47,489 bases of DNA from a phage: NCBI GenBank assembly GCA_025699765.1, contig GCA_025699765.1_4134.1; one strand, given 5' to 3'. Below are positions 1,204 through 45,366 of the stretch, piece by piece. Position 1 is the first letter of the stretch. Each line of letters opens with the position of its first letter. Under the pieces are notes generated by a model, which made no database searches, was not told the DNA's origin, and saw only the letters and a list, made by a program, of their open reading frames with translations. Both the position numbers and the translations under genes were made by a program.

Positions 1204-1851
1204 TTATTCGAAGTTGGTGATTGATTGAGATTGTACAGGCTTCGCGCTCGTTGCTTCAACCTGTTTTTTCTGTTCCGGTTGCGCTGGGCGAATGCCGCGA
1301 GCTTTGCCGATCTCAAATTTAGCCTTAAGTGCGTTGTAATGATCCTGAATGATTGATTTGCTCGCCGTGTCAGTTTGGCGGTAGGCGTTGGCCCATACAT
1401 CCTTCAGTGATTCGATATCTTCACACGCATCAAGTTCTTTCTTCCAGTCCTTGACAGATTTCACCGCAAGCTGCGCGTCGTCGTCACTTTGGCTAATTCC
1501 CAGCGCTGCGGCTAGAGAGTAGCGTCGCGCATACGTCATTGCAGAACCTACGCCTTGCGGATCGCGTTTTGCAATCGGCATCATCATGAAGAATTTGGCC
1601 CACTGCCCTGATTTGTGAATCAGCATAGTTTCAAGATGGAAAGTAGTTTCTGTACTGGTATCCAGCATTGATTGCAGGATCATGATATCGTTGTCGGTTA
1701 ACGCCGGACTGACTGCCGCCATCATTGCGTCAAGAGTTGCGTATGAATTTTTCAGGTGATTGTTTTTCGCGTCCTTTTTTGCCTTCGCGAATTTATTGCG
1801 AGCGTTGAACAGAGCCGGAAGGATTTCGTTTGTTTCTGGTGATAATTGCAT
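1204..1851 (-). CDS. erf: Erf-family single-strand annealing protein
   Basis: Motif GSAMTYARRYSLAAALGISQSDDD resembles the P22 Erf core (recalled from memory). Start refined to MQLSP with AGGAGA site; the track ORF begins 33 nt upstream. Confidence 0.65.
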   Translation of the reverse strand: MQLSPETNEILPALFNARNKFAKAKKDAKNNHLKNSYATLDAMMAAVSPALTDNDIMILQSMLDTSTETTFHLETMLIHKSGQWAKFFMMMPIAKRDPQGVGSAMTYARRYSLAAALGISQSDDDAQLAVKSVKDWKKELDACEDIESLKDVWANAYRQTDTASKSIIQDHYNALKAKFEIGKARGIRPAQPEQKKQVEATSAKPVQSQSITNFE

Positions 1852-1925
1852 CTTAACTTCTCCTGATTGGTGTATGAGGTGCATTATAACACCTCATTAA
1901 TTATTTGTTTAGCTATTTGTGCCGT

Positions 1926-2990
1926 TTACTTGTTTTGGTAGCGTACCCATGACGGCGTTTCAAGTTCAATCTCGCTTGCATCGCCAGCGTATCCAGGCCA
2001 AACATCCATTTCAGAGCAAGCCTTGTAAGTGTGGACTACGCTAATGTACTGACTGCGCCCGATCCTGATTTGCTCCATCGTCATACGATAAGCAAGGGCG
2101 ATGTAAGGCTCTTTTTTCTCCTGTGCCAGCAATCGAACTACGATCGGGATATCTTCCGGAAAGTCTCCTTCAAAAGCGCCAGCCTGGATTGCACGTCGTA
2201 GCAGGTCATGCTGCAAGGCCATTTTCAGGTAATATCCGTGATTGTATGCCAGTCGCGGGAACTCTAACGGGTTGGCGCTCATTGTAGTTTTGAAGTCAGT
2301 GATAATTAGCGCTTCAGGGAAAATAACGTCTTCAAATACAGGATCGCCGTTCTCATCATAACCAGTCAGCACTCGGCCTGGAACATTCTCTTTGTAGTCC
2401 AGATGGTCAAGACGAACCTTAACTTTGACGCCGGATATCTCACCGAAGATTGAGATCTCACGCTGCGCCGTTTTGCTGTTGATACACGCTTCATGATCGG
2501 GGTTCTGTTCAAGTATAGCTCTCATCTTCATGCAAGCATCATATTTATCAGCGTCAACCAGTTGCTTTCCTTCAGCGCGAGCCTCAGCTTCAGCAATAAG
2601 TTCAATAAGATATTGAACATTGAGATCTTCACCACAATCAACCATCATTTTGATGAGGTCAGGGTACTGCTTTCCTGATGTACCTTTCAGGCCGAATGAT
2701 TTTAATTTCGATGCAAGAGCGGCTTGTGACGTAATGAGATCCTTAAACTCTGACGGAGCCGGGCAACGGGCATACGATGCAGTAAACAGATCGCGACTCT
2801 CAAAGTTAGTATGCGACTGAGTACCAAATTCCAGCGCTTTAGTTGTCTCGTTCTTCTTGAATCGCCAGTTAGCCGGGCAAGTCTGATAGATTTCAGCAAG
2901 GCTAGATCCGCTTACATACTCCGCAGCCCAACCTTCATTGCTGTGATACTCGTCATTAGAAAGCTGACTTGATGTGAATACTTGGAACAT
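1926..2990 (-). CDS. Recombination exonuclease, PD-(D/E)XK (RecE/YqaJ-like)
   Basis: 354 aa with a D...ITDFKTT (D-x-K) nuclease motif; sits directly upstream of erf and ssb as in phage recombination modules; GGAG site before the ATG. Confidence 0.65.
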   Translation of the reverse strand: MFQVFTSSQLSNDEYHSNEGWAAEYVSGSSLAEIYQTCPANWRFKKNETTKALEFGTQSHTNFESRDLFTASYARCPAPSEFKDLITSQAALASKLKSFGLKGTSGKQYPDLIKMMVDCGEDLNVQYLIELIAEAEARAEGKQLVDADKYDACMKMRAILEQNPDHEACINSKTAQREISIFGEISGVKVKVRLDHLDYKENVPGRVLTGYDENGDPVFEDVIFPEALIITDFKTTMSANPLEFPRLAYNHGYYLKMALQHDLLRRAIQAGAFEGDFPEDIPIVVRLLAQEKKEPYIALAYRMTMEQIRIGRSQYISVVHTYKACSEMDVWPGYAGDASEIELETPSWVRYQNK

Positions 2991-4735: not shown

Positions 4736-7700
4736 TTACCAGACACCAACAACCACTCGGCCCCCGTTAGGTAGGTTAACCGTGATCCCGTTATTGTTTA
4801 TCTGAACCGTATTGTTTGTCCCGTTGAATGCAAACGATCCGTTGTCTGCATACAAAGCACCCCTTACGGTTGCGTTCATGAAGTAAGCTGCACCATTCTT
4901 GTTAATATGCCATCCTTGATTTCCATCCCAATTGTTAGACTGAATCGCGTTACCAATCATGGCGTTAGTAATAAATCCATCCTTGATAATCGCGCTATTT
5001 AGAATAACCTGGCCATTCTCAACAACGAATGGGTACTGAGTCTGACCATTCATCCCTGTCATGATTGCAAATCGTGATGCCTCAAACAAAATCTGCGCCT
5101 TAACTGCTGCGCCTGAACCAATCAGAGACATAGCCATGCCTGCACTGTATTCCTGCCCATTATACTTAAGGCCCATCTTGACGCCGTACATTGCACCAGT
5201 CGAATCCGCATTGCTCCACGAATCAAGTTTTTGAGAAAGTGCTGCCTCATTATTCCCAAGCCTCGCGCTTAACGACAAGTCAGCTTGCGTTCTCGCCTCA
5301 GTCTCGTTTGCTATAGCCTCTCTGATATCAGTCAAACTTGCCTGGATATCATCACCAATCTCTGCCTTGAGTTGGTCAATTTCACGCGATAGCGCTCCAG
5401 TCTCAGTCGCTATAACTTCACGCAATTCGCTATTGCTTGCGCTAATCTGATCGTCAAAACTTGCCTTCAACTGCTCGATCGCCGTCACTCGCGCCTGCGT
5501 CTCATCAGCAATAAGTTTCAGTGATTTCGTGTACTCAGCTTTTCGTTTTCCGTTCTCCTTCTTCATGTAGATCGCGTCTTTATCATTGGCGAGCGCGTTT
5601 TCTATTGCTGCCTCTGCGTTAGCTGCGTTCTGCGCCGCGTTGTCTGTTGCGTTATCAACAAGCCACTCGTAACCCGGCGAGTTTTCGATATCGACAGAAA
5701 TCTCTCCGATGATATCGTCAACGTTTGTTGATGCCATACCTCTGACAAAATCAGTCCACTGAGACACGTTACCGATCCTGTCAACCGTCCTTACCCGATA
5801 CCACACAATATTCCCTCCAGGCATCGGTGAGTGATAATACTCATGCTGCGGGTACGGAATCAAAGAAAGCAAACTTGCGTTATCCACTGTTCCATCCGGT
5901 GACTGTTGCAACTCTGTATAGGCCGTATCTCCAGAACCATCAGAGAACCCCCATTTTGTACGGATACCAAAAACAACATCATCCGTAGCTGTAAGGTTAA
6001 TAGGTCGTCCCGGCTCACCTTGTTTACCCGTCAGCGTCGCAGCTACGATATTTGACCATCCTGAAGTCGTACCGGAACCAGCGACAGATCGAACGCGAAC
6101 CTGATAGTTGCCAGCGTAAATCCCTTCAACATAAACCTCCTTGTTTGCCGTCTGCGGGACGTTCTGCCAGTTGCCATTATCCTTTCGCCACTGGACGTCA
6201 TAGAAAACTGCGTACGGAACTTTATCCCAGCTAACAATCATCGTTTCTACGCTCATCCCCTGGACGATTCGTGATTCTGAGGACACTTGCACGTTTTCCG
6301 GTCTAGGGATCTGATCTGGTTCAACGATGCTAGTCGGTCGGTCGTCGATATTAACTCCGTAATCAATCTCATCGTACTTGTTAGGATTGTACTCCACCGC
6401 CGTGATTTTGTAGGTAAATTCCTCATCATCATCGCCCTTATCGATTTTTGTCACGACGTACTGCTGTAACGCAATGTCGGTGCGGTCGATAGCGAATACC
6501 GTGTTAGGCTTCACAGGAAAGCCAAAGCCAATGTTAACCTCTATAGTCTTACCATCCGCACTAACACTTGAGATTGTGCGCTTCACTGGCTTGCCATCTG
6601 GCTTATTTACGATAATAAAGTCACCAGCGCGTGCATCCACACGGAACGGCAAGAAAATCTGACTACCGGATACTTCGAGCAAGCGCCCTGATAGGTTCAT
6701 CGTTAAGTTACTTGACCAGAAGTTATCAGCTATTGCCACAACATCTCCGATTGTCGGGATCATGCCCTCAAGTCCGGTAGCGAAGTTTACCGTAGTGCTG
6801 CGGAGGTTAGTTTTCAGAATCCATCTCCCGCGTCGGTTAGCTTCACTTCGACGTGTGCACCCGATCGCTGTAATGCTCGTTACGTTATTCCCGAACCGTA
6901 GAGTTGCCTCTCTGTCGAATACTGGCTCAACGTCCTGCTGATACATGTTTTGTTCATCATCAAACATAACGTTGCACGTCGTGTACATACTTTTCTCGCT
7001 TGCGAACGTGTAGGAGAAGTCACCATTAACCACGTTGTCGTTAGTGAAGATGTACGCAGGTTCACGCGGCCTGTCGATGATTACCGAAATGCTTTCACCA
7101 TTCCAAAAGCTCATTCCACGGAAGATTGAGCAAATATCTCGAATCACCTTGTACGCATCAGTCTGTGACTGAATTATCACGTCGCAAAGGTAGCGAGGCT
7201 CAGTACCGCCTTTACCGTCAGGAACCATCTGATCACAATATTGCGCCGCCTCATATAGCGCCCATTTATCGACAGATATTCCAAGCTCTTTCTGATCAAG
7301 CCCATAACGCTGATTAATCATCAGGTCATAAAGTACCCAGGCAGGATTATTAGTCCACGCCTTCTTAAAAGTTCCATCCCAATTTCCGTTATAAGTTCGT
7401 GATTCTGGATCATAGTTTGACGGAACGTTTACAATCTTCCAGCGCTTACGAATTGAGATCGTAGGTAACTGGTTTGGGAACATCTTCGAATCGAACTCGA
7501 CGAAAAGAAGACCAGTCAGAGGGTAACGGAATTTGGCATCAATCACCTCGGCATAGCTCTTTACCTGAATCGCGTCAACAACGTTCGAGTCGTTAGAGTC
7601 TGGAGTTTTACGAACGACTCTGAATATCACCTGATTGTTGAAGTTAGGTAGGTTTACACGCCTGCTTCGATCGTAACCTGACATTGTTTTGCCTTCGATT

Positions 7701-8185: not shown

Positions 8186-8232
8186 GATGTTTACCTTTTT
8201 GTGCTATTTATCGGTGAACCCATTATACAGGC

Positions 8233-14817: not shown

Positions 14818-14930
14818 GATGTTTCTCCTGATTGGTCGATAGCACTTTTTGTTAAAAGTTAAGTGAATAAAGTTGATAGGATGATTTTACAGAAATGAAT
14901 AAGGGGGCGCAAGCCCCCTATGGGTGGTAT

Positions 14931-18599: not shown

Positions 18600-18640
18600 A
18601 ATAATAGCACTTTTTGTTAAAGCGTCAAAGTGTTTTTATG

Positions 18641-25826: not shown

Positions 25827-25879
25827 AAATCCATCCTCTTTGTTTAACATTTAGTGCTATTTTACCATATTGCAGGCAT

Positions 25880-28082: not shown

Positions 28083-28154
28083 TTTGATTTTCTCTCTTCG
28101 TTGTCGATGAGGTAACTATATCAAATCACCCCATCGACGTTTTAGCAATTCGTG

Positions 28155-28727
28155 CTATTTATTGATGAACGTGGCGGCTATGTGCTGAGCGGTAATTTCT
28201 GGATGACCTTCGACAGAAAAGAAGTCACACTCCTGATAACCGTTGACACCGATCATATCGTCAAGATAGATATAGTCGCGGCTGTCGTTGTCAAAGTTGC
28301 AACCGTTGCGATGGATTCGACACAGCTTGACCTGGATGTCACCTTCAATCATCTGCAAGATCTCGTCTTTGAATCCACCGTCAGTAAATACCGAAAGTGA
28401 ATGCGACTCTTTCACCTTGCTTTCCGCTCGCATACCGAAGAAGCGATTTCCGAACTGCGGCTTGATGACCTCCTCGCTAATCCAGATCATAAACTGGCGC
28501 GGGCTTTTACCGTTCAGGATTGATGCTGGCTCTTCTTTATATCGACGGTCCTCATACAAGAACATGAAATACTCGTAGTTAGCTTCACCCAGGATTGCCC
28601 GGGCAATCTCAAACATTGGCGCTTTGAAGCTGCGTAGCGCTACATGATCGTAAGTGTCAGCCAGGATGCATCCGATAGTGTCCTTTCCTGCGCCAGGCGC
28701 GCCGTTTAAAATGATAGCTGTTTTCAT
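28155..28727 (-). CDS. Deoxynucleoside monophosphate kinase-like P-loop protein (T4 gp1-like)
   Basis: Walker A GAPGAGKDT and an NGKSP motif, both resembling T4 gp1 dNMP kinase (recalled from memory). Confidence 0.6.
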   Translation of the reverse strand: MKTAIILNGAPGAGKDTIGCILADTYDHVALRSFKAPMFEIARAILGEANYEYFMFLYEDRRYKEEPASILNGKSPRQFMIWISEEVIKPQFGNRFFGMRAESKVKESHSLSVFTDGGFKDEILQMIEGDIQVKLCRIHRNGCNFDNDSRDYIYLDDMIGVNGYQECDFFSVEGHPEITAQHIAATFINK

Positions 28728-28835
28728 GTTAGCATCTCCCTAAAAATAATTTTGCCATATTGATGATAGTGTGATTGATGATTAACAGGATGATAACCGT
28801 CAATACCGGATGTGCTGAAATAAATTCGTACAGGT

Positions 28836-29369
28836 TCATTCATCTACCCCGTGAGATTTTAAATGACTGTGAACGTTATCGCCATAGTCAACTACAGCGT
28901 AAGTGGTTATCCCAAGCGATCTGAATTTTTTTATTATATTCACTGAGTCATCCCAAGCCGCAAGAATGTTTTCAATGCCGATCGCGCGAACCGCCTCCTC
29001 TTTCATCACCGTATCTTTCCGGTTATCGGTGCGCGGACGCATAATCAGGTAATCATATCGCGCACCGTGATGCTTAAGCCATAACTCAGATGCGTAACGC
29101 ACCTCATCACTTCGCCCGGTTAAAATTATTACATGATATCCAGCGGCAAACATGGAGTTCATCACATCGATCGTGCTTTGGATAGGGTTGTCAAATATTG
29201 CAGCGCGGTTAAACTCGGACCAGCTTTCGGTTAAGTGCAAATCCTTTGTAGGTAGCAGGTGAAGTCGACCAGATCCATCGCTAAGTGTTCCGTCAAAGTC
29301 AAAGATTGCTACGCGGCGCGGGCCGAGAAACAGGTTGATTGTCTGGCCCCAAATTGTGATTTTATCCAT
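28836..29369 (-). CDS. HAD-family phosphatase resembling the 3'-phosphatase domain of T4 polynucleotide kinase
   Basis: HAD motif I AIFDFDGTL; further matches to the T4 Pnk phosphatase domain (ILTGRSDE vs VVSGRE; DNRKDTVMKEE vs DTRKDDVVKEE), recalled from memory. Confidence 0.65.
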   Translation of the reverse strand: MDKITIWGQTINLFLGPRRVAIFDFDGTLSDGSGRLHLLPTKDLHLTESWSEFNRAAIFDNPIQSTIDVMNSMFAAGYHVIILTGRSDEVRYASELWLKHHGARYDYLIMRPRTDNRKDTVMKEEAVRAIGIENILAAWDDSVNIIKKFRSLGITTYAVVDYGDNVHSHLKSHGVDE

Positions 29370-29409
29370 GATTTATTCCTCTGATTGGTACATCATTTTT
29401 AACTTGGGG

Positions 29410-29535
29410 TTGCGAGGCTACGGTCTACGTTTGCCCCTTCCTTCCTAATGGGTTTTCCCAAGTCAATTTGCTTCGAGGTTTGCGCGGCTCCGGTATACGT
29501 TTGCCGCTTCCTTCTTTTGGGTTTGCCACGAAGCG
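29410..29535. repeat. Tandem imperfect direct repeat (2 x ~60 bp) in the leader of the phosphatase/kinase operon
   Basis: ttgcgaggctacggtctacgtttgccccttccttcc... and ttgcgcggctccggtatacgtttgccgcttccttct... are about 85% identical and adjacent. Confidence 0.5.
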
Positions 29536-29537
29536 TT

Positions 29538-29594
29538 TCGATGGAGTAACTATATCAAGATGCCACGATCCGGTTTTAACAAAAAGTGCTATTC
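29538..29594. repeat. 57-bp exact repeat, copy 1, promoter-like element
   Basis: tcgatggagtaactatatcaagatgccacgatccggttttaacaaaaagtgctattc; the second exact copy is at 31549-31605. Contains TAACA-N5-TGCTA and ACTATA. Confidence 0.7.
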
Positions 29595-29794
29595 GTTTTA
29601 ATAGTGATGCAAAAATAATTTTTTAAGCACGTCACCACGCGCGCTGAATCGACTTGTGGGAGCCTTAAAATCTCGTGGACCAATTGCACTGCCGACACCT
29701 CAGATTTGTAGTAGTGGGCGATTCTGGAGGTATTTGGGCGCATTCCTTCCACTGCGTCGCGTGCTGCATCTTCTGCTGTCATGATAGTAGCCAT
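29576..29794 (-). CDS. Hypothetical ORF, 72 aa (weak)
   Basis: Track ORF whose 3' end overlaps the repeat element; coding status uncertain. Confidence 0.25.
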   Translation of the reverse strand: MATIMTAEDAARDAVEGMRPNTSRIAHYYKSEVSAVQLVHEILRLPQVDSARVVTCLKNYFCITIKTNSTFC

Positions 29795-29903
29795 AAAACA
29801 CCCTTAAGAGATAATGTCAGGATCAGGAGGCAAAATAGCAACCCCTGAAATGATGGCGGCTCGTTATTCCAGTTAGAAAAGTCTGGCATAGTGTTTTCTC
29901 CAA

Positions 29904-29936
29904 AAGAAAGGGGAACCGTTCAGAGCCGATTCCCCA
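29904..29936 (-). terminator. Hairpin (ggggaa...ttcccc) plus U-rich tail
   Basis: Stem-loop immediately downstream of the 29943 gene stop on the minus strand. Confidence 0.4.
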
Positions 29937-29942
29937 TTAGCA

Positions 29943-30317
29943 TTACATGATGAACAACAGCGAAATCGAAGCGACCAAGAGAACAAGAGCGATAGCCAAA
30001 CCAGACAAATCTGCCTTCTCTTCAAACTTCAGCGCTGGCTTACGGTCAACTTCCGACGGCTTGACGTTGTTGATCTTGTTAGCTGCAACATTGCCATTGA
30101 CGCTGAAAGTGCGCTTGCGCTTCTTGCCGAACGTTGCGAACTTAGTGCCGCCGCTATTCCATCGAAGACCTTCGCCATTATGCGTTACGGTTGCAATGCG
30201 GTGTCGGCCCGTGTCGTCGGTCAGCGCTACGGTGTGCTTTGCGTGCTCAGTGGGCACGTCGTAGATTTTGCCAACAGTAAATTTTTTGGTGTTATCACTG
30301 ATACATTCGAATTTCAT
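29943..30317 (-). CDS. Tail-anchored membrane protein, 124 aa
   Basis: C-terminal hydrophobic anchor (LSGLAIALVLLVASISLLFIM). Start refined to MKFECIS with AAAGAGG site; the track ORF extends to a GTG at 30467 with a weaker site. Confidence 0.5.
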   Translation of the reverse strand: MKFECISDNTKKFTVGKIYDVPTEHAKHTVALTDDTGRHRIATVTHNGEGLRWNSGGTKFATFGKKRKRTFSVNGNVAANKINNVKPSEVDRKPALKFEEKADLSGLAIALVLLVASISLLFIM

Positions 30318-30576
30318 GAATTTTACCTCTTTATTATGCAGTTGGTTGATTTCTTCGATTGCGTCTTTAAATTTAACACCATCTACGATTCGATGAAAGA
30401 TATATTTTGAACTACCGCCATACGGAAGAAAAATTTCCTGATATTCGCGACGACGGACAATGTTCACATTTCAGCCGTTCTCATCAGCAATGATAAAACT
30501 ATCATCACTCACTCTAGCGCCTTCATACACCTCCCCCACTTGAAACCAGATCCGCTACTTGATACACATTCAAATT

Positions 30577-30864
30577 TCATGGTCTAACCTTCCTGTAAGG
30601 TTTGATTGATAACATCACGTACTGCGTGAAGTCGCATTCTTGCTCGTCATACCCGCGATTGATGTATGGCGTCACATCAGTAACATCAGATACCCTGGCA
30701 TGCACTTCCCACCCGGTAAACTCATCCCGATCGAACTCGCATAGCTCCAGGATATCGCCAGGCTGGAAGTTGCGGTCATTAATGCGGAACTCTGCCGTTT
30801 TTGTTCCGTTCATTACTCCGATGAAATGTACAGGAGCGATTTTTAACTTATGAGTTTTTCTCAT
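30577..30864 (-). CDS. DUF3850 / ASCH-like (PUA-fold) domain protein
   Basis: HKLKIAPVHFIGVMNGTKTAEFRINDRNFQPGDILEL matches the DUF3850 pattern H-x-LKI-x-P-x-YF...K-x-FE-x-R-x-NDR-x-FQ-x-GD. Confidence 0.55.
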   Translation of the reverse strand: MRKTHKLKIAPVHFIGVMNGTKTAEFRINDRNFQPGDILELCEFDRDEFTGWEVHARVSDVTDVTPYINRGYDEQECDFTQYVMLSIKPYRKVRP

Positions 30865-30971
30865 AGCTGATTCCTCTGATTGGTTGCTTTGCTTCAATAA
30901 GGCCACTATATCAAATGGCCTTGCGGAATGTTTAGCAATTTGTGCTTAGTAATTTTATGGCTTTATATTAA

Positions 30972-31271
30972 TCAATCAGGTTCGCGAGGCTTGTAGTTAA
31001 AACGATGCCAGCTTGTTCTTAGTTCTATTTGTTCGTAACTATCCCTACGCTCAGCGAAGCCAAGCTCCACAGCTAACGCGTGCAATTCATGTTTCCGCTT
31101 TATCTGTGCCATTCCAAGCCAGTCTGCGTCTGCATTACGCCGTTCACACTGCTTCGGGGTCATATCGTTGAAATCTTTTTCGCTTAGCTTCTGCTGCCGT
31201 TTTGTGTCGGCTTTCATGTCGCGCAGATGTTTAATCATCTTGTCAATCTTACTGATAGTATATTCTGTCAT
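30972..31271 (-). CDS. Hypothetical protein, 99 aa
   Basis: ORF in the early operon downstream of a palindrome-bearing region. Confidence 0.5.
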   Translation of the reverse strand: MTEYTISKIDKMIKHLRDMKADTKRQQKLSEKDFNDMTPKQCERRNADADWLGMAQIKRKHELHALAVELGFAERRDSYEQIELRTSWHRFNYKPREPD

Positions 31272-31309
31272 GTTAACCTCTGCGCCCGGCTTTCGCTGGG
31301 CTTTGAATA

Positions 31310-31522
31310 TTACATTGGCGGTTGTACTCGGAAGAATTCAAAATCTTTCAGTGTGGCAAGTTTCAACTTATCTTTACTGGTGATCACTTTTGGTTCTTCC
31401 GACCAGCTGGCTCCGAGTTGCGGCTTGCTTGCCAGAACACCTAATACCTCAGGTTGTTCGTCGAGCACGTAGCCAAATGTGTGGCCGTTCATTACGTAGT
31501 AAGTTGCGTTGTTGAATTTCAT
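31310..31522 (-). CDS. Hypothetical protein, 70 aa
   Basis: Start refined to MKFNNATYY with GAGG site; the track ORF extends upstream through the 57-bp repeat. Confidence 0.5.
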   Translation of the reverse strand: MKFNNATYYVMNGHTFGYVLDEQPEVLGVLASKPQLGASWSEEPKVITSKDKLKLATLKDFEFFRVQPPM

Positions 31523-31548
31523 TTTGTTTTCCTCGGTATGTTTCGTTG

Positions 31549-31605
31549 TCGATGGAGTAACTATATCAAGATGCCACGATCCGGTTTTAACAAAAAGTGC
31601 TATTC
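31549..31605. repeat. 57-bp exact repeat, copy 2, promoter-like element
   Basis: Identical to 29538-29594; lies between the 31600 and 31310 genes. Confidence 0.7.
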
Positions 31606-31920
31606 TACGGTAAACTCGACGTCGGTGATTTTCCACTTCTCAGTCTTGGGAGTGGTGAGGTTCTCAATTTCAAGAATGTTACCCTCAACCTTGAGGAATT
31701 TTAGATCTTGCCCACTTATTTCACGCAACTTACCTACGAGCATTCCAGCGTTTAGTCTTACGACGCTCCCATCAAATCCTTTTGTGAAGTATCTTGGGCC
31801 AACGGTATCAAGGTTTATCTTGATTGACCTCTTACCAATCAGTGCGTCAGCTATCTTCTTGATGTTTTCCTTCTGCTTACCAATTGCCTTACGCTCTTCT
31901 TCTGTTAACGGTTTAAACAT
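31600..31920 (-). CDS. Hypothetical protein, 106 aa
   Basis: ORF in the early leftward operon. Confidence 0.5.
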   Translation of the reverse strand: MFKPLTEEERKAIGKQKENIKKIADALIGKRSIKINLDTVGPRYFTKGFDGSVVRLNAGMLVGKLREISGQDLKFLKVEGNILEIENLTTPKTEKWKITDVEFTVE

Positions 31921-31932
31921 AGTAATTCCTCC

Positions 31933-32448
31933 TCACAGTCCACACTTTTCGATATGCGCCTTCATCTGGCGAACCAGGTCGCGCACGGTGCTTACAGTCA
32001 CGTCGCCTTTCTCAAGGTCATCAATATCAGGAACAAACGAATCCAGACAATCGGCTATGCTAACTTTTTTCCGACTACGGCGCTTCTTCACTGGAACCTC
32101 TTCGTCAGTAACGGTAACGGTTATCATTGTGATTGCCGACTCATTACGGCCCACCTTCACCTTTGCCACCTTGCCGTACTTGCAGAAGTGCCGGGTAATA
32201 ATCGGAGTGATGAAAGCAGACTTAAATCGCTTCTCCACCTCCTTCCCGTTCGAGGTCAACCATGTTGATGCGCCTCGCTCAATCTCTTCCTCTGTAATAT
32301 CCCGATCTCGGAAGTAAAATTTTACCGCCTCTCTCGCCATATCATCAGCCAAGAAAGAGAACTCGGTCATGCCTTTGTCGCGATACATTTTGTCACAGGT
32401 TAGGCGAATCATGTCGGTGATTTTTAATTCCTGATTGGTATTGCTCAT
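31933..32448 (-). CDS. Hypothetical protein, 171 aa (first gene of leftward early operon)
   Basis: First ORF leftward of the AT-rich control region; basic patch KKRRSRKK. Confidence 0.55.
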   Translation of the reverse strand: MSNTNQELKITDMIRLTCDKMYRDKGMTEFSFLADDMAREAVKFYFRDRDITEEEIERGASTWLTSNGKEVEKRFKSAFITPIITRHFCKYGKVAKVKVGRNESAITMITVTVTDEEVPVKKRRSRKKVSIADCLDSFVPDIDDLEKGDVTVSTVRDLVRQMKAHIEKCGL

Positions 32449-33134
32449 AATATAACCTCTTTGTCTATTCGTGTGTAAATGGCGTCATAACGTGTCAACA
32501 ATTGCCATTGTGACGGCGCAATACAGATATGTCAACGCCTGCGAGCCAATTTTAAGCCGTGTAACATTTGTCTAGCTGTCTAGAGTCACTATAGAAATAT
32601 ATAGCTCCCAAAAAAAGTACTGTATATATAAACATGCAGATAGAAATATGCCAACAGTACGCTAGACAATGTAAGACAACTATACACAACTATTACAATA
32701 TAATTATCTATATATATAAATAAAAAAAACACTATATATATTATATAGATACATATATCTATATGTATATTTAGAGGCGTCACAGTGTGTAATTTTGTCA
32801 CAATGGCGATTCTAGACAAATATTACAGTCGTGACAAGTTAAAGTGTAATCGATAGCACTTTTTGCTAAAAATGGGGATTACTACCAGGCGAACCGGGTA
32901 ACACTAGATCCTCCCTCTCACAATCATTGCATTCTCAGCAACAAATCAACCAACTGTTGCACACCATGCAATAATCACGTTTCATCATTCGAGATCAATC
33001 GGGATCGCAATTATTCCAGATATTCCAGCATTGATGGAATAATGAGCAATTATTGGAATAGCATTTTTTGCTAACGACTTAGCTATGTTGGCAGGGTATG
33101 ATTCATCACATCAACCAGCCAGGAGAATAACAAG
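32449..33134. promoter_or_regulatory. AT-rich divergent control region with nested inverted repeats and two TAGCA-N5-TGCTA sites
   Basis: 686 bp non-coding. Inverted pair gccattgtgac (about 32507) / gtcacaatggc (about 32798); TGTCTAG twice (about 32568) and CTAGACA (about 32660, 32812); (TA)n-rich core 32690-32780; palindromes at about 32862 and 33053. Confidence 0.5.
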
Positions 33135-34739: not shown

Positions 34740-34819
34740 ATAGCACGATTTGTTAATATTGCCGCAAGGTCATTTGTTAAAGTGGCCTTGTTCAAGATAA
34801 CCAATCAGGAGTGAACGCA

Positions 34820-44819: not shown

Positions 44820-44913
44820 GGCTATTTAATCCTTTGAATCGTTGTATCGTTTACGCTATAATACACGACATACAGTAAACGTTTTTAGCAAAAAGTGCTA
44901 CAGGAGAATTAAG

Positions 44914-45366
44914 ATGAATATGCAACGTATCGCAGAGTCAACTGGTGAAATCGATAAACGTCACATTAATGGTAACAACGGAACGCGACGCGGTAAAGAC
45001 AAAAAGCCTCGGCAGCGCTGCGGCTTCTATATTCATAAAGAAGAAACACGAGCGGGACTGCGAGCGCGACTTGACGCTCTTATTGAATATTACGGCGGCC
45101 CAGCGGCCTGCGCAAAAGCTCTGAAGGTTAGCAATCAGACCGTGCAAGGATGGAAAGATCGCAACATGATTTCGTGGCAAGGTGCTGAAGCTGCGCATCG
45201 TGCTTACCGCCGTCAGGGGTGTAAAGGATTCCGCGCCGCATGGCTGCGATTCGACCTGAAGTTTGACGGTAACGGCAAATGCCTTGAGAAGAGATGCAAG
45301 AATAAGAAATTTATGCGCGTCGTGAAGAAGGAAGATATCGGAACGACCAATAGCATTTTTAGTTAA
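44914..45366 (+). CDS. Cro/YdaS-like HTH DNA-binding protein (candidate transcription regulator)
   Basis: YYGGPAACAKALKVSNQTVQGWKDRNMIS resembles Cro/YdaS-type HTH; basic N-terminal region. Start refined to MNMQRIA with AGGAGA site; palindrome elements lie on both sides. Confidence 0.55.
   Translation: MNMQRIAESTGEIDKRHINGNNGTRRGKDKKPRQRCGFYIHKEETRAGLRARLDALIEYYGGPAACAKALKVSNQTVQGWKDRNMISWQGAEAAHRAYRRQGCKGFRAAWLRFDLKFDGNGKCLEKRCKNKKFMRVVKKEDIGTTNSIFS

Follow-up and report, generated by a model that had tools for sequence, protein, structure and literature searches.

Two identical 57-bp intergenic cassettes in the early arm of a T1-like phage: a putative extended -10 promoter unit probably shared by recent recombination

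The stretch of DNA considered here, called the window, is 47,489 nucleotides long (GenBank assembly GCA_025699765.1, contig GCA_025699765.1_4134.1) and represents a T1-like phage (Tunavirus, Drexlerviridae) that is 87-95% identical in blocks to the Tunavirus genomes SA32RD, Shfl1, pSf-2, Eco_BIFF and T1. In a region corresponding to the early arm of T1, one 57-bp sequence occurs exactly at two places, 29538-29594 (copy 1) and 31549-31605 (copy 2) in plus-strand coordinates, and nowhere else even when up to three mismatches are tolerated. No match was obtained in 100 dinucleotide shuffles and none is expected by chance, which confirms the perfect duplication that a preliminary description of this DNA had reported. 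The exact 57-mer was found in 0 of 50,697 phage genome records, where the best full-length match reached 94.6%, and its 36-nt core had no exact match in IMG/VR. Since the genes around both copies all lie on the minus strand, the 57-mer is read here on that strand, as GAATAGCACTTTTTGTTAAAACCGGATCGTGGCATCTTGATATAGTTACTCCATCGA.

Copy 2 follows an ST76-like open reading frame (ORF; 31600..31920, minus strand), recognized by alignment with T1 and pSf-2, and holds its TAG stop codon. It precedes a two-gene module (30947..31541, minus strand) composed of an ORF of 70 aa (31310..31522) and another of 99 aa (30972..31271). Copy 1 follows a T1p66-like ORF (29576..29794, minus strand; phrog_11330, E=8e-49), whose TAA stop codon it holds, and precedes a structured 173-nt leader (29370..29541, minus strand), which extends from the predicted start of copy 1 to the ATG at 29369 of a polynucleotide kinase/phosphatase gene (PNK; 28836..29369, minus strand; HAD_PNKP, Pfam PF25109, E=6.5e-16). 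Overlap with genes is limited in both copies to the stop codon of the upstream ORF; the intergenic location first proposed is thus correct insofar as the copies lie between minus-strand genes, with the reservation that each includes a stop codon.

On the minus strand each copy is laid out as GA-ATAGCACTTTTTGTTAAAA-N16-TGA-TATAGT-N6-A. The first element, hereafter the box, lies at 29574..29592 in copy 1, where ATAGCACTTTTTGTTAAAA matches the T subtype of a published consensus, and at 31585..31603 in copy 2, where it includes the TAG stop codon of the ST76-like ORF; it occupies approximately positions -50 to -32. The -10-like hexamer TATAGT (29549-29554 and 31560-31565) forms with the preceding TGA a putative extended -10 element at 29549..29557 and 31560..31568, and the predicted transcription starts are the A residues at 29542 and 31553. 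Copy 2 would accordingly provide a 31-nt 5' untranslated region (UTR), followed by a GAGG Shine-Dalgarno (SD) sequence and the ATG at 31522. The ACTATA element pointed out earlier is the reverse complement of TATAGT; the palindrome mentioned beside it could not be matched to a particular feature, the box of the 57-mer has partial dyad symmetry (TAGCA-N5-TGTTA), and the hexamer is surrounded by a weak inverted repeat. The spacer (29555-29573 and 31566-31584) contains a GATC (Dam) site within CCGGATCG, a prefix common to a sub-family of cassettes (T1 1450, ULIM2 7638 and 8377, Eco_BIFF 7093), and the phage encodes a Dam-type methylase.

The 57-mer is a further instance of a known repeat of the T1 family and no new kind of element. 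The re-annotation of phage TLS described 18 intergenic copies of aaATAGCACnnnTTGnTAAAA, oriented along transcription some 76 nt upstream of start codons, together with three sigma70-like promoters only; it mentioned similar repeats in T1, Rtp and Rogue1, and in 2024 left the role of this 21-nt repeat as an open question (PMC11447400). The consensus established for Stevie is VWATAGCAYKWWTTGYTAAAAV, with 20 copies cited for T1 and a role called unknown (PMC4319613). Bases 3-21 of the minus-strand 57-mer match the consensus perfectly, in its T subtype, and the sequence GAATAGCACTTTTTGTTAAAA present in both copies departs from aaATAGCACnnnTTGnTAAAA at none of its specified bases. The window carries 16 boxes at no more than two mismatches and about 20 at no more than three; the latter are intergenic and almost all oriented as the next gene, and a repeat search placed the pair within a larger family of related elements of about 50 nt (families D1, D2 and D5). 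Consensus match, intergenic position, orientation along transcription and abundance (about 16-20 per genome) are therefore shared with the repeats of T1, TLS and Stevie. The difference is that the published accounts cover 21 or 22 nt only, whereas here the repeat forms the upstream part of a longer cassette with an extended -10 and a +1 at fixed distances, and the pair is identical over 57 bp, far past the repeat. From the start of the box to the ATG, copy 2 measures 81 nt, near the published value of about 76 nt, whereas copy 1 measures 223 nt owing to the inserted structured leader.

At many junctions the stop codon of the upstream gene is the TAG of ATAGCAC or the TAA of TTGnTAAAA in the box, as seen in the window at 31600-31603 and 29576-29578 and in T1 after ST62, ST65, ST66, ST69, ST71, ST72 and ST76. 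As the stop of the upstream gene lies in the box, recombination anywhere downstream in the cassette spares that gene.

The properties of the cassette family were examined on 86 non-redundant members from six genomes (the window, T1, SA32RD, pSf-2, Eco_BIFF and ULIM2), aligned in a gapless register and numbered so that the hexamer occupies -12 to -7. The box shows near-invariant bases at A-48, G-47, C-46, A-45, G-38, A-35 and A-34. Downstream, conservation concerns T-15 (51/86), G-14 (77/86), T-12 (63/86), A-11 (73/86) and T-7 (66/86), and, at a fixed distance from the box, C-1 (52/86) and A+1 (70/86), seven nt past the hexamer. Both copies of the 57-mer conform, with TG at -15/-14 followed by TAnnnT, and with an A at +1 preceded by C, as assigned by the sequence criterion. 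The box-plus-TATAGT pattern occurs at 11 sites of the window versus 0.02 expected. A search of IMG/VR for the box-plus-extended -10 pattern returned 4 loci only and the phage GenBank collection was used instead; the succession of box, 19 nt, (T/C)AnnnT, 6 nt and A was encountered in TLS, which is about 48% identical to T1, in Stevie and in one IMG/VR contig. Most window cassettes are followed by an SD sequence and a start codon 20-32 nt further on, and such a UTR added to the 50 nt between box and +1 reproduces the published distance of about 76 nt.

Promoters of the sigma70 extended -10 type are defined by TG, TAnnnT and the start bases, and class II activator sites, such as those of CRP or FNR at -41.5, lie near the position of the box. 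Judged by base conservation, the cassette thus bears the signature of a sigma70 extended -10 promoter, and the constancy of T-15/G-14, T-12/A-11/T-7 and C-1/A+1 relative to the box over 86 cassettes, and in TLS as well, upholds the preliminary description of a promoter-like cassette. No canonical -35 was found in the 57-mer: AAAACC stands 17 bp upstream of the -10, and no TTGACA-like hexamer occurs at 16-18 bp. The TTGTTA of the box lies 22 bp upstream of the hexamer, as does TTGnTA constantly throughout the family, too far to serve as a -35. A scan of the minus strand for consensus -35/-10 pairs called neither the 57-mer nor the other cassettes as such, scoring the sibling cassette at 30905-30934 only with the first hexamer shifted. 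The box itself has partial dyad symmetry, TAGCA-N5-TGYTA, with its centre at about -42; it is symmetrical at 4/5 positions in the 57-mer and at 5/5 in roughly half of the cassettes, those with C at -37. These features support the interpretation of the cassette as a sigma70 extended -10 promoter in which a box near -42 would replace the -35. The resemblance to extended -10 and class II activator promoters includes TGnTAnnnT, the lack of a usable -35 and a partly dyad site at about -42 overlapping the -35 region; the T1 box differs in being asymmetric outside its TAGCA/TGYTA core, and no activator is known.

In mechanistic terms, the host sigma70 RNA polymerase would recognize TGA-TATAGT and initiate at the A seven bases on (29542 and 31553), while the 19-bp box ATAGCACnnnTTGnTAAAA would stand in for the -35 as an upstream recognition or regulatory site, read by some factor or by the polymerase alpha subunit. 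Each 57-mer would then be one unit of the cassette that precedes most early and middle genes of T1-like phages. Copy 2, at its ancestral position downstream of ST76, would now drive a foreign two-gene module, and copy 1 would drive the PNK gene, its T-type box, core and structured leader having been pasted before it.

The flanks of the two copies indicate how these neighbourhoods were assembled. On the copy 2 side, window 31543-32107 aligns at 78.7% with T1 1509-940, so that copy 2 takes the place that cassette 1450, after ST76, has in T1, and homology with pSf-2 (94%) begins at 31583, inside the box of copy 2. Downstream, the 595 bp of 30947-31541 have no blastn match in T1, SA32RD, pSf-2, Eco_BIFF or ULIM2, and homology with these relatives resumes at the next box, at 30946. 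The two ORFs of this foreign module match phrog_25091 and phrog_11458. The gene for the 99-aa product (30972-31271; phrog_25091, E=1e-42) shows 70.9% nucleotide identity to the N gene of phi80, an early antiterminator; its relatives are annotated N or 'regulator' in Salmonella, Hafnia and Morganella phages, and no Pfam domain was detected in it. A phi80 N-like gene is unexpected in a virulent T1-like phage.

Copy 1 likewise joins two distinct ancestries. The box and the 140 nt upstream of it show 94-95% identity to the cassette found after the T1p66-like gene in T1, SA32RD, pSf-2 and Eco_BIFF (95% for T1_4344 and SA32RD_45222), and the T1p66-like ORF itself is 92-95% identical in nucleotides to its relatives, beginning at 29572. 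The 200 nt that start at the box match another cassette, ULIM2 7638, together with its leader, at 96% identity (window 29375-29593 corresponding to ULIM2 7439-7657 at 96%). The two homologies overlap in the box only. At its far end the leader meets PNK within ACCAATCAGAGGAAT, the ULIM2 homology stopping at 29375 and the T1 PNK homology beginning at 29389. Both copies are therefore recombination (mosaic) junctions. More generally, 18 of 65 ends of high-scoring segment pairs (HSPs) between the window and its relatives fall inside cassettes versus 6.7% expected (p=1.7e-7), or 8 of 29 when the breakpoints are counted as distinct clusters (p=5e-4).

The identity of the pair exceeds what the family displays. 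The two copies agree at 22/22 freely variable family positions, whereas the remaining pairs within one genome (window, T1, SA32RD or TLS) share 6.7±2.7 of 22, with a maximum of 18 in T1 and SA32RD and of 16 in TLS. Selection on the conserved blocks does not explain such a match, and the copies are thus identical by recent descent, in agreement with the recent duplication or gene conversion suggested at the outset. The comparison with related phages that had been advised was made, and positional orthologues in T1, SA32RD, pSf-2, Eco_BIFF and ULIM2 carry different cores. The T-type box of copy 1 is native to the ST76 position, whereas the T1p66 cassette and ULIM2 7638 have GAA-type boxes; the whole 57-mer was hence apparently copied between the two sites.

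A possible sequence of events can be proposed. An ST76 cassette would first have been fused with a core and leader of the 7638 type, a block copy would then have been pasted before PNK via homologies in GAATAGCAC and in the ribosome-binding site (RBS), and the sequence downstream of the original would finally have been replaced by the foreign module. The patches of homology would be the box, the +1 region CCATCGA/CAACGAA and the RBS block ACCAATCAGAGGAAT, used by the Erf/exonuclease system of the phage to exchange modules made of promoter, leader and gene. Systems of the Erf/exonuclease type are known to use short homologies. At 1204..2990 on the minus strand lie the genes of an annealing protein of the Erf family and of a PDDEXK exonuclease (Pfam ERF, E=1e-23; DUF3799, PDDEXK-like, E=3e-15), which, from their inferred role, are likely the machinery of short-homology exchange between cassettes. 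The RBS block recurs as ACCAATCAGAGGAAT or ACCAATCAGGAG before many early genes, for instance at window 29375-29389 and 30870-30884; since the second crossover of the copy 1 module falls on it, this block resembles another kind of short-homology linker.

Taken jointly, we consider it probable that the 57-mer is a promoter cassette and that the pair was made identical by recent recombination between cassettes. Several points weigh against this reading. The literature searched gave no transcript, transcription start site, RNA-seq or reporter data on T1-family cassettes, for which reason promoter activity and start sites rest on conservation. Those who described the repeat proposed roles as stoperator, enhancer or UP element (PMC11447400, PMC4319613). 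Some boxes stand without a -10 partner at start codons (25842 and 8189) or in antisense orientation (14839 and 18604), which implies at least one role of the box beyond these promoters. In the siblings the sense strand folds more stably than its complement in 41 of 48 cassettes (p=9e-6), as developed below. On the side of recombination, HSP ends are not independent, since related genomes share ancestry, and no intermediate genome was found for the proposed order of the events.

The unpartnered boxes deserve a description of their own. Those at 25842-25860 and 8189-8207, both on the minus strand, abut the SD and start codon of the small terminase and tail fibre genes, and perhaps have a second role as translational or roadblock operators. 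Those at 14839-14857 and 18604-18622, on the plus strand, are antisense to the late structural operon, sit in the gaps before the major head and tail-chaperone genes, are followed by TAnnnT-like hexamers and occupy the same positions and orientation in T1 and SA32RD; by their layout they could be antisense promoters.

Most cassettes of the left arm possess a further property. The flanks of the hexamer are complementary, with arm sequences that differ from one cassette to another (GGGGTA/TACCCC, AAGGCCA/TGGCCTT, AGGGGAAT/ATTCCCCT and GGGAGTAA/TTACTCCC); the modal symmetry centre is the 5' edge of the hexamer, and the -10 lies in the hairpin loop or overlaps the 3' arm. Such hairpins are found in the window at 28104-28160, 30894-30950 and 34740-34800 and in T1 at 1450, 2269, 3535, 4344 and 4864. 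Over 39-nt segments of 48 independent cores, real cassettes fold at -11.6 kcal/mol versus -7.1 kcal/mol for chimeras whose 5' and 3' halves come from different cassettes (permutation z=-13.8). This control replaced a fixed-register covariation test, whose signal was real and was diluted by the varying hairpin centres. The better folding of the sense strand suggests that the siblings have an additional function at the RNA level, on read-through transcripts, possibly in their processing or stabilization. The sibling at 30894..30950 (minus strand), with its AAGGCCA/TGGCCTT hairpin around TATAGT (-15.5 kcal/mol, z=-2.9), lies between the two copies and marks the downstream edge of the foreign module (breakpoint 30946); the one past the kinase genes at 28104..28160 (minus strand) forms the strongest hairpin of the window (-22.7 kcal/mol, z=-5.3). 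For the 57-mer itself the folding energy is -6.3 kcal/mol, no lower than that of its shuffles (z=+0.55), against -14.7 kcal/mol for the T1 orthologue: the 57-mer has lost the co-adapted hairpin carried by most of its siblings. A second class of cassettes has a tight GC hairpin in the spacer resembling an intrinsic terminator (window 38872 and 40860).

These hairpins lead to an interpretation that we rate as unlikely, according to which the cassette acts mainly at the RNA level: a box hairpin (UAGCA-N5-UGYUA) and a larger variable hairpin between genes would process, stabilize, terminate or antiterminate read-through transcripts, TATAGT being incidental or secondary. It would account for the excess stability over chimeras and for the sense-strand bias, which a contribution of G-U pairs would predict; facing the invariant G-47, position -37 carries C or T, whereby pairing is preserved as G-C or G-U, several such hairpins were labelled terminators by the annotators of SA32RD and T1, and some boxes directly precede start codons without a -10. 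It leaves unexplained the conservation at fixed spacing of TG, TAnnnT and C-1/A+1, bases contacted by sigma70, and it accords poorly with the unstructured 57-mer, with left-arm cassettes devoid of a U-tract after the hairpin and with the absence of any Rfam family match; being compatible with a promoter, it need not replace it. Quite unlikely in our estimation is a box serving as a repressor or roadblock site that shuts off or times early and middle transcription, like the 'stoperators' of mycobacteriophage L5. The authors of the Stevie and TLS studies proposed it from the asymmetry, intergenic position and orientation of the repeat (PMC4319613, PMC11447400), the boxes within transcription units and beside late-gene start codons are in keeping with it, and the Cro-like product of gp23, described below, has a canonical promoter whose transcript would cross a box before its own SD, a typical autoregulation layout. 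The L5 elements likewise are short, asymmetric and numerous repeats along transcription, in or between genes; L5, however, is temperate and its elements are bound by a repressor, whereas T1-like phages are virulent, with no repressor known, and their boxes are coupled to the -10. The fixed spacing of 19 nt between box and extended -10 suggests cooperation with RNA polymerase, and the gp23 helix-turn-helix (HTH) matches fall below curated cut-offs, with no solved homologue.

With regard to the identity of the pair, strong purifying selection on the whole 57 bp as a protein- or RNA-recognized element, which the preliminary description had entertained, is already contradicted and retains hardly any plausibility. 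The box, TG, TAnnnT and +1 are clearly constrained, but siblings differ freely in the 19-nt spacer and in the 6 nt past the hexamer; with the 16-nt core of the spacer and these 6 nt free to vary, other pairs reach 6.7 of 22 and at most 18, and the orthologues in the five relatives differ at the variable positions. An origin of the duplicate in faulty assembly, or in a chimera between two T1-like phages grown together, is also highly improbable. The arrangement is absent from the 50,697 phage records and from IMG/VR, and both copies lie at mosaic junctions, which a chimeric assembly can imitate; yet reads of normal length exceed a 57-bp repeat, each of the four flanks is unique and three run into long homology blocks (79-96%) of different relatives, and such mosaicism is usual in the family, the gene order being otherwise collinear with T1.

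Other identities were considered for the cassette and set aside. A sigma54 promoter (TGGCAC-N5-TTGCW) does not fit, since the box has AG for GG and the spacing of TAGCAC-N3-TTGC is 2 nt too short. For sigma32, CCCCAT follows the hexamer in no more than some of the cassettes, where it belongs to the variable stem, and the spacing of the CTTGA element is wrong. The A/T tracts lie about 5-6 bp out of the rrnB-type register and the invariant AGCAC is not A/T-rich, which leaves an UP element as a minor possibility only, and the IHF consensus is poorly matched on either strand. As for the rho-independent terminator annotated in SA32RD, the 57-mer folds as its shuffles do, a terminator scan gave no call, and the sequence that follows is CGACAACGAA or AACGCTT, with no U-tract. 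An intrinsic terminator is plausible for the siblings with a tight GC spacer hairpin (window 38872 and 40860; T1 39976 and 41956).

Two leads concern the reader of the box. The homologue of T1 gp23 (44914..45366, plus strand) contains a weak HTH of the Cro/YdaS type, with a Pfam P22_Cro match (E=5.5e-5) below cut-off and an NCBIfam NF046037 score of 34.9 bits against a cut-off of 38; a sequence search of the PDB found no solved homologue. Its promoter is canonical (TTGAAT-17-TATAAT at 44834-44862) and overlaps back to back the divergent helicase cassette, so that the predicted transcript crosses the box of that cassette before reaching its own SD, a layout that would fit an autoregulated regulator. 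As the sole recognizable DNA-binding candidate, the gp23 product is a lead for a box-binding regulator. The box also scores 11.7/15 against the E. coli Lrp consensus yAGhAwATTwTdCTr, versus a background of 6.0±1.7, a mere resemblance that we note as a lead. More tentatively, and with odds that we place below even, these elements might compose an undescribed architecture: an extended -10 promoter whose dyad box at -42 would be read by a dedicated regulator, Cro-like gp23 or host Lrp, and whose -10 would lie in the loop of a sense-strand hairpin processing or terminating read-through RNA. A single unit would thereby close one transcript and open the next, while providing the upstream gene with its stop codon and recombination with a portable linker, the 57-bp pair being an exchange freshly caught.

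The closest analogue of these cassettes is provided by the promoter-early stem-loops (PeSLs) of T4-type phages, composite cassettes shown experimentally to mediate module shuffling and the formation of mini-circles (PMC2839356, PMC4122927). Both are short cassettes with promoter and stem-loop flanking small early ORFs without an assigned function, located at junctions of insertion, deletion or replacement, and PeSLs recombine via homology patches of less than 50 bp, as the T1 cassettes would too. In both groups the stem-loop is often of the form GGGG...CCCC, and the promoter, putative in the T1 cassettes, is of the sigma70 type. The two differ in phage family and sequence, which are unrelated, and in design: PeSLs place a canonical strong promoter beside a terminator stem-loop, whereas T1 cassettes have no -35, a box at about -42 and a -10 often inside the hairpin loop. 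Experiments have demonstrated mini-circles for PeSLs, as well as activity as promoter or terminator, whereas the T1 cassettes are described from their sequence. Both copies of the 57-mer share the location at junctions; the composite of promoter and stem-loop is displayed by the family, the 57-mer being without a significant stem.

Seen in this light, the 57-bp duplicate would be a routine by-product of phage mosaicism, the exchange being recent enough that both junctions are still readable, and the conserved intergenic cassettes of T1-like phages would be sites where modules of promoter, leader and gene swap, as with PeSLs in T4-type phages. A testable answer is thereby proposed to the question raised in the TLS study: the 21-nt repeat may be the upstream half of an extended -10 promoter of fixed geometry. 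If true, this architecture would explain why standard promoter searches find almost none in these genomes, and would allow better annotation of several hundred Drexlerviridae genomes in which the elements are now labelled terminators, repeats or nothing.

The leader of copy 1 consists of two tandem domains of about 65 nt, each domain combining an outer stem with the purine run AGGAAGGAAG and with the hairpin GCGGC-AAACGUAGACCGGA-GCCGC on the inside, as delineated by alignment and consensus folding. It is conserved in ULIM2 (96%), Shfl1 (92%), ECO104 4-5-2 (88%) and partly in the TLS-like FSL SP-126, and shows two compensatory pairs in four sequences, with a minimum free energy of -45.7 kcal/mol (z=-2.0). 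In Shfl1 and ULIM2 it precedes a T1p75-like gene and not PNK, and alignment indicates that it moved together with the cassette core. A search of Rfam over 28800-32000 at E<=1 gave no match, the leader included; by its structure the leader is possibly a cis-regulatory RNA not yet described.

Where the leftward operon begins, upstream of copy 2, lies a cluster of canonical sigma70 promoter matches (32449..32837, minus strand) that includes TTGTCA-17-TAGAAT, TATACA-18-TATAAT and TTGACA-17-CACAAT. The consensus scan placed canonical promoters at this operon head only, and its total number of matches over the scanned region is not above shuffled expectation. Searches of the flanking ORFs against Pfam, PHROGs and NCBIfam were uninformative except for PNKP and DUF3850/ASCH. 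Between the two copies, at 29943-30467 and 30500-30590 on the minus strand, the counterpart of a 639-bp gene of the relatives (SA32RD_64, pSf-2 gp55) appears interrupted: two MKFE... starts, separated by a stop, are suggestive of a frameshift or a pseudogene.

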